Shown one piece after another: positions 2,567 to 60,198 of a stretch of DNA of 64,000 nt. The stretch is from sequence record OL964735.1; one strand, written 5' to 3'. The notes under the pieces were generated by a model. The model saw only the letters and a list, made by a program, of their open reading frames with translations, was not told the origin of the DNA and made no database searches. Positions within the stretch are counted from its first letter, which is position 1. Each line of letters begins with the position of its first letter. A program made the position numbers and the translations under genes. The stretch is from Escherichia phage T4.

Positions 2567-3571
2567 TTAACTTACCAACTCAATCCAAGCTGGACGAAGT
2601 ACATCTTGTACCATTTTAACTAATTCCTTTTTAATCAAAGAAGGATTATCTGCTTGAGTTAGAGTAATACCTTCACGAGAAGTTTCTTCCAAAATATCTT
2701 GAACAGTTAGCCCCATCACCTTTCCAAAATCCTTTGGACCAATTTCGCCAATTTTAGAAATAACGTTATTTACGCGGTTCAGTGTAACGTAACAAGCTAA
2801 AATTCCCACCAATTTGTTATCAGCTTCTGATAGCTCAACTTTAGCTTTAATAGGCTTATCAGACTTTTTCTTTTCACTAAATTTAGAGTTCTTGCATTTA
2901 ATCGCTACACGATTTCCATTACGAAGCCAAGAAGGATAACAAGGTTTCAATACATATCCTTCAGCAGTAAATACTTCGCCTTTTGCTTCGGCATTCCAAA
3001 CGCATTTATTTGCATCAACTAATCCAGCATGGTCTACTGTAAAATTATAATCTTGGACGACAGAATCTAAATCATTTGGCAATTTAATAAGCTCTTCAAA
3101 TTTACCGCGACCTAAAAGTGGAGCCATTTTAAATTTAAATGTATTACAGAATGATTCCATCATATAATCATCTACATAAGTCACATCACCGCTTTCTGTA
3201 GTAACAATAATGTCAAATACATAAAAATCTTTATCACCATAATCAACATTCTTCTGAATGCCAGGTCCAGCGAATTCGCCAAAGACTTGATAAGATACAA
3301 CCGCTGAGGTTTCCATAATATCTTGTACAGCTTTAATGGAATCAGCATAATTCTTCAAAATAATTTCATACCCAAAGAAATCTTCAGCAGGAAGAATCGG
3401 TCCAGTGCGTTTAGCGCAAGTCACTTTATCACGCTCAATAATCAATGAGAAATTTGTGCCGTGAATCTTTTCACGAGCTACCCACTCCCCACCAGTCAAT
3501 CCCAAGCTATAAAGTTTTTCAATAAATTTAGAGTTGTAATGATTTTCAAGACTGCTATACTTTTTAAACAT
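2567..3571 (-). CDS. rnlB: RNA ligase 2 (Rnl2)
   Basis: 334-aa ORF (T4 Rnl2 is 334 aa); nucleotidyltransferase motif I KIHGTN with the adenylated lysine. Confidence 0.9.
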
Positions 3572-3859: not shown

Positions 3860-4061
3860 TTTTCACCTTTTTATTGATATGTCTTTTTCTATAGACAACT
3901 TTTTCTCGAGTTTCAAATTTATTCTTAGCAGTCATAGCTCGAGCCCATAATACAGCCACTTCTTTTGCCTGTAAGTTTAATTCACGAGCAATTTCAATGA
4001 ATGACTTTCCAGACTCATGAAGAGTAAACACCACAACCTCAGTTCTCATAATCAATCTCAT
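3846..4061 (-). CDS. 24.3: Hypothetical protein with HTH-like segment (24.3 position)
   Basis: 71-aa ORF; start overlaps upstream gene; possible helix-turn-helix GKSFIEIARELNLQAKEV. Confidence 0.5.
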   Translation of the reverse strand: MRLIMRTEVVVFTLHESGKSFIEIARELNLQAKEVAVLWARAMTAKNKFETREKVVYRKRHINKKVKNGTV

Positions 4062-26669: not shown

Positions 26670-27004
26670 TTCATAATCACCAGATAAGCAGATTTAGCAG
26701 TTTCAACACGATAAATTTCGTGACGAAGTTTAGTTATACTTTTAATAACAGAACTAATTATATTCTGCCCATCTTTAAAGCGGTTTTTCTTATCAATAAA
26801 AACTGCGCCAGTCATCTTTTTGTGAAGCTCAACTGGATACTTCGTCACAATAATAGCATCATACACAGAAGGATGAATACTATTCACCAGAGTATCATTC
26901 ATTAAAGTTATTCTAATGAACTGTGCTGTTTCAGAATCAAGCGCTCTATGATCGCCAGTATCATTTTCAAGACAATTATCAATTATATCAGTTAAATTCA
27001 TCAT
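26666..27004 (-). CDS. cd.1: Hypothetical protein (cd.1 position)
   Basis: 112-aa ORF. Confidence 0.5.
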   Translation of the reverse strand: MMNLTDIIDNCLENDTGDHRALDSETAQFIRITLMNDTLVNSIHPSVYDAIIVTKYPVELHKKMTGAVFIDKKNRFKDGQNIISSVIKSITKLRHEIYRVETAKSAYLVIMK

Positions 27005-27240
27005 AGTACGCCATACACCCTTTGTGCTTCAACTAATCCATCAAAATCCAGTTTAAGATGCGATATTTGATCGCCATCACCTGGATTCACAATTACTAAT
27101 ACTGAACGAGGAGTTTCGGTAATAACACGAACCGATGTTTCAGGAAATCGTTCAGAAACCTTATTTACTAATTCCTGCGCAAATAGTTTAACTTTTTCTT
27201 GGAATTCTTTAACAGTAATCGGTTTTTCACTTAGCAACAT
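27001..27240 (-). CDS. cd.2: Hypothetical protein (cd.2 position)
   Basis: 79-aa ORF. Confidence 0.5.
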   Translation of the reverse strand: MLLSEKPITVKEFQEKVKLFAQELVNKVSERFPETSVRVITETPRSVLVIVNPGDGDQISHLKLDFDGLVEAQRVYGVL

Positions 27241-27268
27241 TTTGTTTTCCTCATTTGTTTTGGTAGAG

Positions 27269-27478
27269 CTATAATATCACAACTCTACCGTAAAGTAAAC
27301 CATTAAATCGCTTTGAATTCCGCAGTTTGAGATTCAAATCTGGAAGCAAAGTGTTCAATACATGAGTCACTTGAGCATGGATTCGAAGCTCAGCTGCGTT
27401 ATCAAGTTTTTCAAACATATTATTAGCGATAATTTGGCTAAACACTACTTCTACGATTTTAGAGTAAGTCGGAAACAT
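27269..27478 (-). CDS. cd.3: Hypothetical protein (cd.3 position)
   Basis: 69-aa ORF. Confidence 0.5.
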   Translation of the reverse strand: MFPTYSKIVEVVFSQIIANNMFEKLDNAAELRIHAQVTHVLNTLLPDLNLKLRNSKRFNGLLYGRVVIL

Positions 27479-27480
27479 AT

Positions 27481-27673
27481 TTACCTCACATAATTTTCTT
27501 CAAGCCAATCAATAACATCCAACGCATTATCAAAAGTTGAACCATCTACTCTGTCTTCTGTTTCATAATCAAGAACATCTAGGCCTACTCTTCCGTCAAC
27601 AATAGGCCATAGACAAAATAGATATTTCTTTTCTTTTTCAATTTTATCACAAAGACGATAAATCTTTTCTAGG

Positions 27674-27681
<8 letters not shown>
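27481..27681 (-). CDS. cd.4: Hypothetical protein (cd.4 position)
   Basis: 66-aa ORF. Confidence 0.5.
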
Positions 27682-29000
<1,319 letters not shown>

Positions 29001-29004
<4 letters not shown>

Positions 29005-29300
29005 TTACATTTATCCTCTTTTAGCTCTTGACGATAATAACATATCATAGTTTTCTGGTCATGTACATATCGTTTTACATCATTAAGCCAAATACGAAAT
29101 TCCTGAGAATCTTCAAATGGCATACCGACCCAGGCTTTACCATCAATAACTTTAACTTGCCAAGATAGTTTAGCTTCATCATATGACTTTATTTGCACAG
29201 GCCAATTAGGATGAACTGTTTCTTTCTTTACTTCTAGAGGCTTTGTCGAACAACCAACTAGAAGACCAATAGATAATATTACTGCTGATAGTTTAATCAT
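29001..29300 (-). CDS. pseT.2: Outer-membrane spanin (o-spanin lipoprotein)
   Basis: 99-aa ORF; signal peptide with lipobox LVGC|S; paired with the upstream i-spanin-like ORF. Confidence 0.7.
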
Positions 29301-29650
29301 TTAGAAAGGTCCTGGATGTCTTCTGCGAACTTGTTGAAGGAGTTGTTGATTTGTTTTTCAACCAATCCTGGCTTATGAGCCACCACATCCGCCTTCTTTG
29401 CATCTTTGCGCAGTTTTTCATTTTCACGCTCAATAGCAGCAATTGCCTCACGATTTTTATTATTCATCGCATCAATATAATTATACTGAATTCGCAAATT
29501 ATTTAATGCTAAGGCGTTTTCATTGGCCGTTTTTGTAATTTCAGTAACTGATGTTTCTAATCTTTCTACCTTATGTTTTAAAATAATAGATGTTCCGCCA
29601 AATGCTATTACAAGTAATAGCAATCCAGCTGTAAAATTACTTACATGCAT
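29297..29650 (-). CDS. pseT.3: Inner-membrane spanin (i-spanin)
   Basis: 117-aa ORF; N-terminal TM helix (GLLLLVIAFGGTSIIL) followed by a coiled-coil-like region; overlaps the o-spanin start. Confidence 0.7.
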   Translation of the reverse strand: MHVSNFTAGLLLLVIAFGGTSIILKHKVERLETSVTEITKTANENALALNNLRIQYNYIDAMNNKNREAIAAIERENEKLRKDAKKADVVAHKPGLVEKQINNSFNKFAEDIQDLSK

Positions 29651-30144
29651 AAAGTTTTAATAACCTCTACAATATCGTCTTGAGAAAGACCGTTAATTAA
29701 AATATGATGTTCAGCTGGAGATTTAGAAATTTTAAAGCATGCCTCAACATCTTCTGCCATATCCGATGCACTACGATTTGGATTACTAATACCAAGGCGA
29801 TGTTTTCCCGTCAAAGGATTAACGATGATATAGCATTTGCAGCTATTGATATGAACATTGGGTTGAGTCTGATTAATGAACACTTCACAATCATACTTAG
29901 CAAGTTGATTTTCTAAAAAGACTTTCATCTCTTCAACCGCATCAGGAAGCATATCACGGGCTTGCTCAAGACGACGATTTCGATATTCTTTAATGGTCGT
30001 TTTCCGCTTGACTTGCTTAGCTAAATCTTTCTTAAGATCAGTGATATATCCAACTCGACGATTTCCTTTGAATACAGAAATCCCATCTGTAGTATCACCG
30101 TATGCTTCAACGACCATTTCAGTAGTAATAAGTTGTAAATCCAT
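29641..30144 (-). CDS. alc: Alc, inhibitor of host transcription
   Basis: 168-aa ORF with tandem Met start (T4 Alc is 167 aa); preceded by an early promoter. Confidence 0.8.
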   Translation of the reverse strand: MDLQLITTEMVVEAYGDTTDGISVFKGNRRVGYITDLKKDLAKQVKRKTTIKEYRNRRLEQARDMLPDAVEEMKVFLENQLAKYDCEVFINQTQPNVHINSCKCYIIVNPLTGKHRLGISNPNRSASDMAEDVEACFKISKSPAEHHILINGLSQDDIVEVIKTLCM

Positions 30145-30164
30145 CATAAAGTCCTCATGTTATG

Positions 30165-30208
30165 TCAGTAAGACTACTATAACACAACACGAGGGACTTG
30201 TAAACAAC
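30165..30208 (-). promoter_or_regulatory. T4 early-type promoter upstream of alc
   Basis: GTTTAC -35 and TATAGT -10 on the minus strand; nearly identical to the cassette at 17025-17065. Confidence 0.5.
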
Positions 30209-31796
<1,588 letters not shown>

Positions 31797-31804
31797 AATA
31801 AAAT

Positions 31805-31818
31805 GGGCCTTGCGGCCC
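31805..31818 (-). terminator. Hairpin between nrdB and denA
   Basis: gggcc-ttgc-ggccc stem-loop. Confidence 0.4.
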
Positions 31819-31823
31819 ACTCC

Positions 31824-32326
31824 TTAAAAGTATTTTTTAAAACTCATCATAACTTTATCATCAACATCATTATCAATCTGTGCAACAAGGTAAGATGACA
31901 GTTCTACTTCTTGCGGCGCGGATTGAACATTATCAGAATTAAGATATTCACGAATCCAAGGATATGGATGTTTAACCGGAGCATCGGTAATTGGGCATGG
32001 AAGACCGCACTGTTTCATACGAGATACAGTTAAGTAATCAATAAAGCTCCACATGCTATTTGTATTTAATCCAGGAACATCACCATCTTTAAATAAATGA
32101 ACTGCCCAGTCTTTTTCCTGGCGGTTAACTTCCATGAAAATATCAACTGCTTCTTGTTCACACTCTTGGGCAATTTTAACCCATTCATCACCATCAGTAC
32201 CGGATTGAAGTTGACGAATAATATATTGGGTGCCTTTAAGGTGAAGCTGTTCATCACGTGCAATGAACTTCATAATCTTGGCATTACCTTCCATGATTTC
32301 CATGTTCTTATGGAAGTTAAAGGTAC
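31824..32326 (-). CDS. nrdB: Ribonucleotide reductase small subunit NrdB, exon 2
   Basis: C-terminal R2 sequence (MEGNAKIMKFIARDEQLH iron-ligand region); joined to exon 1 after removal of a 598-nt intron; total 388 aa. Confidence 0.85.
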
Positions 32327-57646: not shown

Positions 57647-58971
57647 TTGATTTCCTCTAAATCTTTGGTGTATTCAGTAACTACATCAGTAGTTTTCCAA
57701 TATTCGTTTTCTTCTTTTTTAGCTTTAGCTTCTTCAGCAAGTTTCTTTGCTTCATCGGAAGTCATATGAAAAATATTCATTCCAACTAGTTTATCAACAT
57801 AAGAAGAATACATATCGATTTTCGAAAGTTCTTCGGTCAGTTCTTTACGAGTTTTACCCTGTACAACAATTTCACCTGAAATTACTTTCTTAATGAAATG
57901 TGCTTTGGCAAAGGCTAAACGAAAAGCTGACTCAGTTTCTTTAATTTTGTTATCAATTCGTTTTTGGACATAAGTTTTACGAACTTCAACAAAGTCTTTA
58001 ATTAAATCAACTACGTTATCGTAAACTTGCAGCTTTCCTTTCTCATTAATAACCGTAATATTCTGGGAACGACGCTCAATCAGTCCGAAGTCTTTCATAA
58101 TTTTTGCATGGCGTTCTTCTTCGTTATCGCTCAAAGAATATTCTTTGCGGAATTTAACTTTGAAGCCAAAACCATGCTCACCACAAGCATCATCCCATGT
58201 AATGAAGCCTTTATCTTCAAGTGGGTCTAAGATTTTACTCACATAAGTTTCACGATCATACTTATACGGAATCTCAGTGATATGCATTTGAGTTCGTGAA
58301 GTAAACTTATATGTTCCACGAATTTCATATTGCCCATCAATTTCAACGACTTCACCACGAAATTCTGGGAATTCTACTTTCGGTTTAGTTACTTTCTTTC
58401 CTTGAAGAGCTTGCAGTACAGCTTTCTTGACAGAAGAAACACTATGAGGAAGAATGTAAGTTGCATAACCAGTTGCAATACCGGAAACGCCATTAAGAAG
58501 AACAGTAGGAATAATAGGCAAATAGAAAGCAGGCGGAATGTGTTCTTTATCTTGATGTACCGGAGCATATTCAGTATCTTTATATACGTTATAGAAATTT
58601 TTACTTACACGAGCAAAAATATAACGACTTGCCGCTGCCTTTTGGACAGTACGAGAACCAAAGTTTCCTTGACCATCTAACAGAGGAAAGTTATTATTCC
58701 AAGTATTAGCCATCAAAGCACCTGCGTCTTGTGCAGAGTTTTCACCATGATGATATCCAAGGTCCGCTACACCACCTGCAATAGAAGCGAGTTTGTGAAA
58801 CTTATCTTTATTTCCTCGTGCCAAATCAAGAGCTCGAGCAATAACAAATCGTTGAACTGGCTTAAATCCATCAATCATATTTGGGATAGCACGATTTTCA
58901 ACCGTGTACATAGCATAAGCCAATGCTTCATTATCAATGATACTTTTTAAATCGCGATTATTCAGTTGCAT
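57643..58971 (-). CDS. 52: DNA topoisomerase II medium subunit gp52 (GyrA-like)
   Basis: 442-aa ORF (T4 gp52 is 442 aa); GyrA-like N-terminal region with candidate active-site Tyr (AASRYIF). Confidence 0.95.
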   Translation of the reverse strand: MQLNNRDLKSIIDNEALAYAMYTVENRAIPNMIDGFKPVQRFVIARALDLARGNKDKFHKLASIAGGVADLGYHHGENSAQDAGALMANTWNNNFPLLDGQGNFGSRTVQKAAASRYIFARVSKNFYNVYKDTEYAPVHQDKEHIPPAFYLPIIPTVLLNGVSGIATGYATYILPHSVSSVKKAVLQALQGKKVTKPKVEFPEFRGEVVEIDGQYEIRGTYKFTSRTQMHITEIPYKYDRETYVSKILDPLEDKGFITWDDACGEHGFGFKVKFRKEYSLSDNEEERHAKIMKDFGLIERRSQNITVINEKGKLQVYDNVVDLIKDFVEVRKTYVQKRIDNKIKETESAFRLAFAKAHFIKKVISGEIVVQGKTRKELTEELSKIDMYSSYVDKLVGMNIFHMTSDEAKKLAEEAKAKKEENEYWKTTDVVTEYTKDLEEIK

Positions 58972-59008
58972 AAATTTACCATACTAGTGAATGTAGTGCC
59001 ATAATAAC

Positions 59009-59116
59009 ATCAGAAATGAAAAGCACGACTTGAATTAATCCGAACATTACTCCGTAATATAGTGCTACCAATAAAGCAGCAAGGGCTAATGAATAGCCCA
59101 AGATTTTCTTAATCAT
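59009..59116 (-). CDS. Small hydrophobic peptide (52.1 position)
   Basis: 35-codon ORF read by hand; start overlaps the ac stop; coordinates +/-1. Confidence 0.3.
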
Positions 59117-59264
59117 TAGATAACAACACAAATGTTAAATATGCACACATACCCTGGGCTAAAGCTTGTGAAAACACACTGCTAGCATCGATACAGATAG
59201 TTAAAACACATGCTACTATCCAACAAATAAATGAAATAACTCCTAATAATTTTGCAATATTCAT
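59109..59264 (-). CDS. ac: Ac (acridine sensitivity) small membrane protein
   Basis: 51-codon ORF read by hand (MNIAKLLGVISFICWIVACVLTICIDASS...); GAGGAAAAT RBS; T4 Ac is 51 aa; coordinates +/-1. Confidence 0.5.
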   Translation of the reverse strand: MNIAKLLGVISFICWIVACVLTICIDASSVFSQALAQGMCAYLTFVLLSND

Positions 59265-59271
59265 ATTTTCC

Positions 59272-59352
59272 TCACTGGCGTCCGAAGACGCCTTTAGTTT
59301 TAAGATTGTTACGATAGAACTGCATCACGTGTTCGTTATGGAAATTACTCAT
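59272..59352 (-). CDS. stp: Stp peptide (suppressor of pseT/rnlA requirement; activator of host PrrC anticodon nuclease)
   Basis: 26-codon [29 protein letters not shown]; ATG overlaps the ndd stop (TAATG). Confidence 0.65.
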
Positions 59353-59807
59353 TAATATGCCTGTAAAACAAATTTAAAGTTATCAGCCAACATACGGTTC
59401 ATTTCTTCGAGTGTTTGATACTCAGAATGATGATTACGAGTAAACGCCAAAGCTAGCTGACCTTTTCCAAATCCCGTCGTTAGAGGTTTCATCTTAGAAG
59501 CAGGCAGATAAAACACTGTGTATGGAACATTGTTATTTGCAATAGTACGCGCAAGTTGAGACCGGCGTTGACGAATATGACTTAAAACCGCACTGAATCC
59601 TTGCTTAGAACGCTGATTACCTACATAAAATCGTGCAGATACGCATGGATTACTAAATGGACCACCGAGTTTACTCACTAAAAAGTAAAATCCAGGTTTA
59701 GATAAAATATCTTTATGCGGAGTTCCTAAAAACCATTCACCACCCTTGATTGTACCAATAACAGTAGCGCCTGCATCATTCAGATCAGTAACAGTCATAT
59801 ATTTCAT
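59352..59807 (-). CDS. ndd: Ndd nucleoid disruption protein
   Basis: ORF is 167 aa from an upstream GTG; start set at MKYMTVTDL to give 151 aa (T4 Ndd). Confidence 0.8.
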
Positions 59808-59867
59808 ATTAATTTCCTCTAAATTATTTTCTACTCCAAGGCCGCATGAATACACACGGCCATTAAA

Positions 59868-60083
59868 TTACTCGTCGCAGTCGACGCTCAATTCCCAAAA
59901 CTCTTCTACAGTATAAGTTTCAGTATCATTTTCAATACAGAAACGTTCATTACTATTATTTGCTAAAGTAGCATTAACTGTCATTTTTTCGCTAGTGCTC
60001 TTAAGAGGTGAAATACGAATTAACTGATCACCGTTATCTAAACAAAAAATTTCACCAACTTTTACATCTTTAAAACTTTTCAT
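59868..60083 (-). CDS. Hypothetical protein (ndd.1 position)
   Basis: 71-aa ORF. Confidence 0.45.
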   Translation of the reverse strand: MKSFKDVKVGEIFCLDNGDQLIRISPLKSTSEKMTVNATLANNSNERFCIENDTETYTVEEFWELSVDCDE

Positions 60084-60198
60084 AATTCACCTCAAGGAGT
60101 ATAAAATCCAAATGCAGTTGTTGACCATCCCATCCAATATGGAAAATTTACACCAATGTAAAACATAAGAATATAAAACCAACCGCTCAGCAAATTCA

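Follow-up and report, generated by a model that had tools for sequence, protein, structure and literature searches.

The question raised by this locus is whether a reading frame of only 26 codons, located in a 64,000-nucleotide stretch of Escherichia phage T4 DNA (record OL964735.1; this whole stretch is referred to as the window), is a gene at all and, if so, whether its product belongs together with two tRNA-repair genes of the same window in a conflict with a host anticodon nuclease. A first-pass annotation had placed the frame at 59272–59352 and had described a one-nucleotide overlap with the stop codon of ndd. The same peptide and coordinates were returned by the open reading frame (ORF) listing, on the minus strand (Table 1), and the overlap is directly visible in the sequence as TAATG, with the ndd stop codon TAA at 59354–59352 and the stp ATG at 59352–59350. 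The frame is part of an early minus-strand gene run, ndd-stp-ac-52.1-52, and the gene order ndd-stp-ac is common to the T4 records and to the phages T2, VR7, and TOPO13. The TAATG arrangement recurs in T2 and TOPO13, and in P818 the gene shares an ATGA-type overlap with its upstream neighbor. According to the ORF listing, the open frame of ndd reaches beyond the annotated start of this gene, to a GTG at 59855. Judging from the TAATG overlap and from a weak AGG within the last ndd codons, which may function as a Shine-Dalgarno-like element, the translation of ndd and stp is probably coupled; most likely, a ribosome finishing ndd at its stop codon would restart at the overlapping stp ATG.

Table 1 Coordinates of the features discussed in the text, given for the window or, in the last three rows, for the loci of other phages.
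Feature	Location	Strand	Basis or correspondence
stp CDS, 26 codons plus TGA stop codon, encoding the Stp peptide	59272–59352	minus	ATG ORF; equals stp of AF158101.6 (165505–165585), AAD42660.1
TAATG, ndd stop codon and stp start codon with one shared base (59352)	59350–59354	minus	read from the sequence
Weak AGG, putatively Shine-Dalgarno-like, within the last ndd codons and 7 nt upstream of the stp ATG	59360–59362	minus	sequence ...ACAGGCATATTAATG
Tetraloop hairpin GGCGUC-UUCG-GACGCC, stp codons 21–26 (GGC GTC TTC GGA CGC CAG)	59277–59292	minus	inverted repeat
ndd CDS, nucleoid disruption protein; upstream gene of stp, same transcription unit	59352–59807	minus	T4 annotation 165585–166040
ac CDS, acridine resistance, small membrane protein; downstream neighbor of stp	59109–59264	minus	ORF; T4 annotation 165342–165497
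pseT CDS, polynucleotide 5'-kinase/3'-phosphatase (Pnkp), tRNA end-healing, 301 aa	27871–28776	minus	identical to T4 AAD42642.1
rnlA CDS, RNA ligase 1 (Rnl1), tRNA end-sealing, 374 aa from ATG	30209–31333	minus	identical to T4 AAD42514.1
rtp4 of phage Rtp, HAD_PNKP-only protein	locus L005, 1444–1983		
U136B_012 of phage U136B, HAD_PNKP-only protein	locus L007, 3043–3606		
HAD_PNKP-only protein of phage P818	locus L012, 4339–4956		

By megablast, positions 58900–60100 of the window show 100% identity to roughly a dozen records of Escherichia phage T4. Where these records use T4 gene names, the ORF is labeled stp, “activator of host PrrC lysyl-tRNA endonuclease”, and in AF158101.6 it is located between ndd and ac. 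The peptide matched the Pfam family PF08133 (Nuclease_act, Anticodon nuclease activator family) with 75.3 bits (E = 2e-21; gathering score used as cut-off, 25 bits), its residues 1–26 aligning to profile positions 1–26 and thus to the full length of the profile, and it also matched PHROG 6763 (E = 4.4e-21). Set against Stp of the T4 reference (AAD42660.1; PF08133, PHROG 6763), the gene shows no difference: it encodes the same 26 residues, lies likewise between ndd and ac, and overlaps the ndd stop codon by one base in the same way. It is the same gene, and the engineered changes of the T4 genome represented by the window (see below) lie elsewhere. A tblastn search with Stp retrieved 817 phage records, 422 of them with at least 99% identity. 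The ORF is named in just six of 60 records sampled across the spread of these matches; stp is left unannotated by most T4-like phage records. No PDB chain matches Stp by sequence, and a literature search for a recent structure of Stp, EcoprrI, or PrrC retrieved none.

A length of 26 codons is by itself no evidence for a gene, because 31 ORFs of at least 20 amino acids overlap the 2.5 kb between positions 58000 and 60500. With short ORFs this plentiful around stp, the frame might be a chance ORF, and the conserved feature might be the nucleic acid, consisting of a hairpin and the ribosome-binding region of ac, with no peptide being made. A stable UUCG tetraloop hairpin is indeed formed by the 3' end of the frame (Table 1; −12.3 kcal/mol, z = −2.5); it is positioned directly 5' of the stp stop codon and of the ribosome-binding site of ac, GAGG, and its stem is retained in VR7 with the loop UUUG. 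The pattern of substitutions, however, contradicts an explanation based on RNA only. In an alignment of nine homologues from four phage lineages the substitutions are overwhelmingly synonymous, and they are so in the stp frame only: pN/pS, counted on codons 2–18, was 0.14 in this frame but 1.2 and 2.5 when the same DNA was read in its two other frames. T4 and K1ind2 differ in these codons by nine synonymous and zero non-synonymous changes. Furthermore, the peptide is retained in four unrelated phage lineages whose neighboring genes differ, and within the alignment it is kept in T2, K1ind2, Rtp, P818, and U136B, from which the hairpin is absent. The match of the frame to PF08133 and the sufficiency of plasmid-expressed Stp for activation of the nuclease (PMC3014915) are further arguments against a chance ORF. 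An explanation by a chance ORF or an RNA-only element, whose probability we consider to be vanishingly small, is thus ruled out by the codon pattern and by the occurrence of the family in lineages that lack the hairpin.

The match to PF08133, the spread of the tblastn matches over 817 records, and the frame-specific pN/pS indicate that stp is a real gene, and the purifying selection acting on this frame in particular identifies it as a genuine gene and not a chance ORF. The hairpin at its end may make the mRNA more stable or determine how accessible the ac start is. T4, T2, TOPO13, and K1ind2 have the same residues 1–18 of Stp, and the other phages deviate from them only slightly; the core of the family is MS(N/S)xHNEH(V/I)MQxYRxx(L/I)K, and the last ~8 residues are variable. 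This concentration of conservation in residues 1–18 agrees with the published mutation map, in which loss-of-function mutations fall on residues 4–14 and deletion of the eight C-terminal codons reduces both activities of Stp only moderately (PMC3014915).

The function of this gene has been described in detail in reviews of the T4 system (PMC3014915, PMC1484252, PMC12409349, PMC12707154). On E. coli strains with the optional prr locus (hsdM-hsdS-prrC-hsdR), T4 pnk or rli mutants are subject to restriction, and stp was defined by suppressors of this restriction. The anticodon nuclease specific for tRNA-Lys is latent, and Stp is both necessary and sufficient for its activation, which further requires GTP hydrolysis, dTTP, and DNA with unmodified sites. 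The cut made by PrrC lies 5' of the wobble base; the resulting ends are converted by Pnkp and resealed by Rnl1. According to the same reviews, stp, pseT, and rnlA are delayed-early T4 genes, and Stp alleviates restriction by EcoprrI and EcoR124I but not by type Ia enzymes, which means that its action involves the restriction complex and is not limited to PrrC.

As the literature has established for the identical T4 peptide, Stp, chiefly through its N-terminal 18 residues, binds and inhibits type Ic endonucleases such as EcoprrI and EcoR124I. In prr+ E. coli, PrrC is kept silent as a latent anticodon nuclease by EcoprrI, and it is unmasked by the combination of Stp-inhibited EcoprrI, GTP hydrolysis, and dTTP. 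The unmasked PrrC then cleaves tRNA-Lys 5' of the wobble base, and T4 counters the cleavage with two enzymes, Pnkp (encoded by pseT) converting the ends and Rnl1 (encoded by rnlA) resealing the tRNA. We are nearly certain that the frame is the T4 gene stp and that it works through EcoprrI and PrrC, with repair by PseT and RnlA, as formulated in the Kaufmann/Snyder model. This explanation is supported by the identity with T4 and the T4 annotation, by the assignment to PF08133 and PHROG 6763, by frame-specific selection, by the intact repair proteins, and by the reviewed mechanism, and the sequence holds nothing that argues against it.

The earlier statement that Stp triggers the host PrrC is borne out by the T4 annotation and by the experiments reviewed in PMC3014915 and PMC1484252, with its target refined. 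A better statement is that Stp is first of all an inhibitor of type Ic restriction, with EcoprrI as its direct target, and that the triggering of PrrC is the counter-move of the host. The observation as such is correct but textbook knowledge: the ORF is the stp gene of T4, and the interpretation is the Kaufmann/Snyder model, which has long been published. The first-pass annotation of stp was accurate to the base. Stp, PrrC, Pnkp, and Rnl1 together are one of the founding examples of a layered conflict in which restriction is met by anti-restriction, and a backup tRNA nuclease by tRNA repair. Genetic and biochemical work has elucidated this system since the 1970s. In the 1970s–1990s, the genes are said to have been defined by testing phages mutated in stp, pseT, or rnlA on prr+ hosts, including stp suppressors of pseT and rnlA mutants, by activation with Stp in vitro, and by assays of tRNA-Lys cleavage and repair.

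Both repair proteins encoded in the window are complete. PseT comprises the Pfam domains AAA_33 (residues 5–148) and HAD_PNKP (residues 159–301) and contains all catalytic residues that were looked up: K15 and S16 in the P-loop GSGKS, D35, R38, and R126, as well as D165, D167, and T169 of the phosphatase motif DxDxT (D165-V-D167-G-T169), R176, R213, D254, and D278. RnlA comprises RNA_lig_T4_1 (residues 52–246) and T4_Rnl1_C (residues 253–374), and its catalytic residues K99 (the motif I lysine of KEDG, here within TKEDG), E159, E227, K240, and K242 are likewise present. The two residue lists are those which we take to have been established by published mutational work on T4 Pnkp and Rnl1. PDB entry 1ltq matches PseT over residues 1–301 and PDB entry 2c5u matches RnlA over residues 1–374; in comparison with this healing-and-sealing pair of T4, the proteins of the window are identical and show no difference. 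Damaged or variant repair genes are ruled out, as PseT and RnlA equal the T4 reference letter for letter. The surrounding region (27000–32000), which carries pseT, alc, rnlA, and denA, is T4 sequence with 100% identity except for one 100-bp scar.

These results agree with the first-pass annotation in that stp, pseT, and rnlA are all present and apparently intact, each being an open frame with the sequence known from T4. That the products of pseT and rnlA repair the cleaved tRNA is likewise in accordance with the annotation of rnlA in T4 records, which refers to tRNA repair in prr hosts jointly with PseT, and with the reviews (PMC3014915, PMC1484252). The description of stp as being “next to” the repair genes holds only insofar as all of them are contained in the window: stp is 28–31 kb away from pseT and rnlA, and the genes are hence not linked. 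A further ligase gene, rnlB (T4 RNA ligase 2, 334 aa), is also open in the window (2567–3571, minus strand); it is outside the PrrC repair pathway as the literature describes that pathway.

Compared with every wild-type T4 record, the window is missing exactly 100 bases in cd.3 (between 27339 and 27340) and exactly 100 bases in arn.2 (at about 55892). There is no microhomology at the junctions of these two deletions, and both genes are frameshifted. The CiPGr genome-reduction study used a “cassette-100” CRISPR design in which each targeted T4 gene loses 100 bp (PMC9825161). The exact 100-base scars in cd.3 and arn.2 fit such cassette-100 knockouts, which indicates that the window originates from an engineered T4 isolate. 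In addition, 869 bases are missing at the rIIB/rIIA junction (between 62514 and 62515), so that rIIB is fused to rIIA; the T4 records OL964745.1 and MZ375356.1 contain the same junction uninterrupted. The genes stp, pseT, and rnlA are untouched by the cd.3, arn.2, and rII deletions. In the gene 24.3 region (3911–3937), a break in the BLAST alignment points to about 27–33 extra bases compared with AF158101.6.

Homologues of Stp were also detected beyond the T4-like phages, in Rtp, U136B, and P818 (Drexlerviridae), K1ind2 (Kagunavirus), and STGO-35-1 (Caminolopintovirus), where they are encoded by ORFs of 25–30 codons whose neighbors are different from those in T4. The Stp-like peptides of siphophages (Rtp rtp6, TLS/U136B, Stevie, P818, K1ind2, and STGO-35-1) share the N-terminal core of T4 Stp, and the start or stop codons of their genes overlap neighboring genes as in T4, whereas the C-terminal third of the peptides diverges. 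For T1-like phages, such peptides have already been noted in genome papers (PMC4319613). The homologue in K1ind2 is an unannotated ORF of 25 codons (NC_041898.1, 40077–40154; locus L006, 2501–2578). It shows 92% protein identity to T4 Stp, with the synonymous sites being saturated.

Profile searches of five small siphophages with Stp homologues yielded no match to Rnl1 (PF09511) or Rnl2 (PF09414) and, for the P-loop kinase PF13671, nothing above the threshold, with a sub-threshold score of 15.8 bits in K1ind2 only; the T4-like phage VR7, which served as the positive control, was matched by all three profiles. The proteins of Rtp, U136B, and P818 that are annotated as “polynucleotide kinase” match the HAD_PNKP phosphatase domain only. 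They consist of 179–205 aa without a P-loop kinase and are encoded 0.5–1.8 kb from stp (Table 1). Based on these domain assignments, the label “polynucleotide kinase” near the stp genes of T1-like phages is doubtful, as is the repair role that genome papers have inferred from it. The absence of a kinase domain and of a ligase from Stp-bearing siphophages is a small addition and not a discovery. Two side observations are of modest practical use: the label overstates what the T1-like protein contains, and stp itself is missed by most T4-like annotations.

The presence of Stp-family peptides in small siphophages lacking both an RNA ligase and a polynucleotide kinase domain supports the view of Stp as an anti-restriction peptide in the first place. 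It also raises the possibility that phages keep Stp purely as an anti-type-Ic peptide, that the triggering of PrrC is an incidental liability, and that the link to pseT and rnlA is specific to T4-like phages, whose repair genes would mainly serve other purposes, and does not reflect a general three-part module. We consider the chances of this explanation to be about even. It is favored by the homologues in Rtp, U136B, P818, K1ind2, and STGO-35-1, by the genomes of these phages, which are devoid of Rnl1, Rnl2, and an above-threshold P-loop kinase, by the annotated “polynucleotide kinase” that turned out to be a phosphatase domain alone, by the 28–31 kb between T4 stp and the repair genes, and by the inhibition of EcoR124I, an enzyme without a PrrC partner (PMC3014915). 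However, a purely anti-restriction role refines the Kaufmann/Snyder model more than it competes with it. Moreover, T4 DNA is glucosyl-hydroxymethylated, so that it is not evident what T4 itself would gain from an anti-type-I peptide. The genetic interaction of stp, pseT, and rnlA on prr+ hosts has, in addition, been established experimentally in T4 (PMC3014915, PMC1484252).

More tentatively, the Stp family could be a mobile anti-type-Ic peptide of small siphophages (Drexlerviridae, Kagunavirus, and Caminolopintovirus) that lack tRNA repair, and its pairing with healing and sealing enzymes could be confined to T4-type phages. We regard this as possible but rather improbable. If true, Stp-bearing siphophages, which carry the peptide without a kinase or ligase, should either be fully excluded by PrrC or escape it by an undescribed route.

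The interplay of Stp and PrrC, for which the Kaufmann/Snyder model remains the preferred explanation in T4, shares its logic with T7 Ocr and PARIS and with anti-restriction proteins and Ronin, since in each case an inhibitor of restriction-modification is sensed and an abortive-infection effector is unleashed. The PARIS effector is likewise a tRNA-Lys nuclease (PMC12409349). The proteins and mechanisms of Ocr/PARIS and Ronin are, however, unrelated to those of Stp: T7 Ocr is a DNA mimic, whereas Stp is a 26-mer. Finally, a weak Stp-like match (58% identity over residues 1–19, E about 0.3) was observed in Salmonella phage seszw (MZ375306, MZ375313, MZ375318, and others), a phage that reportedly was also used in the CiPGr study.
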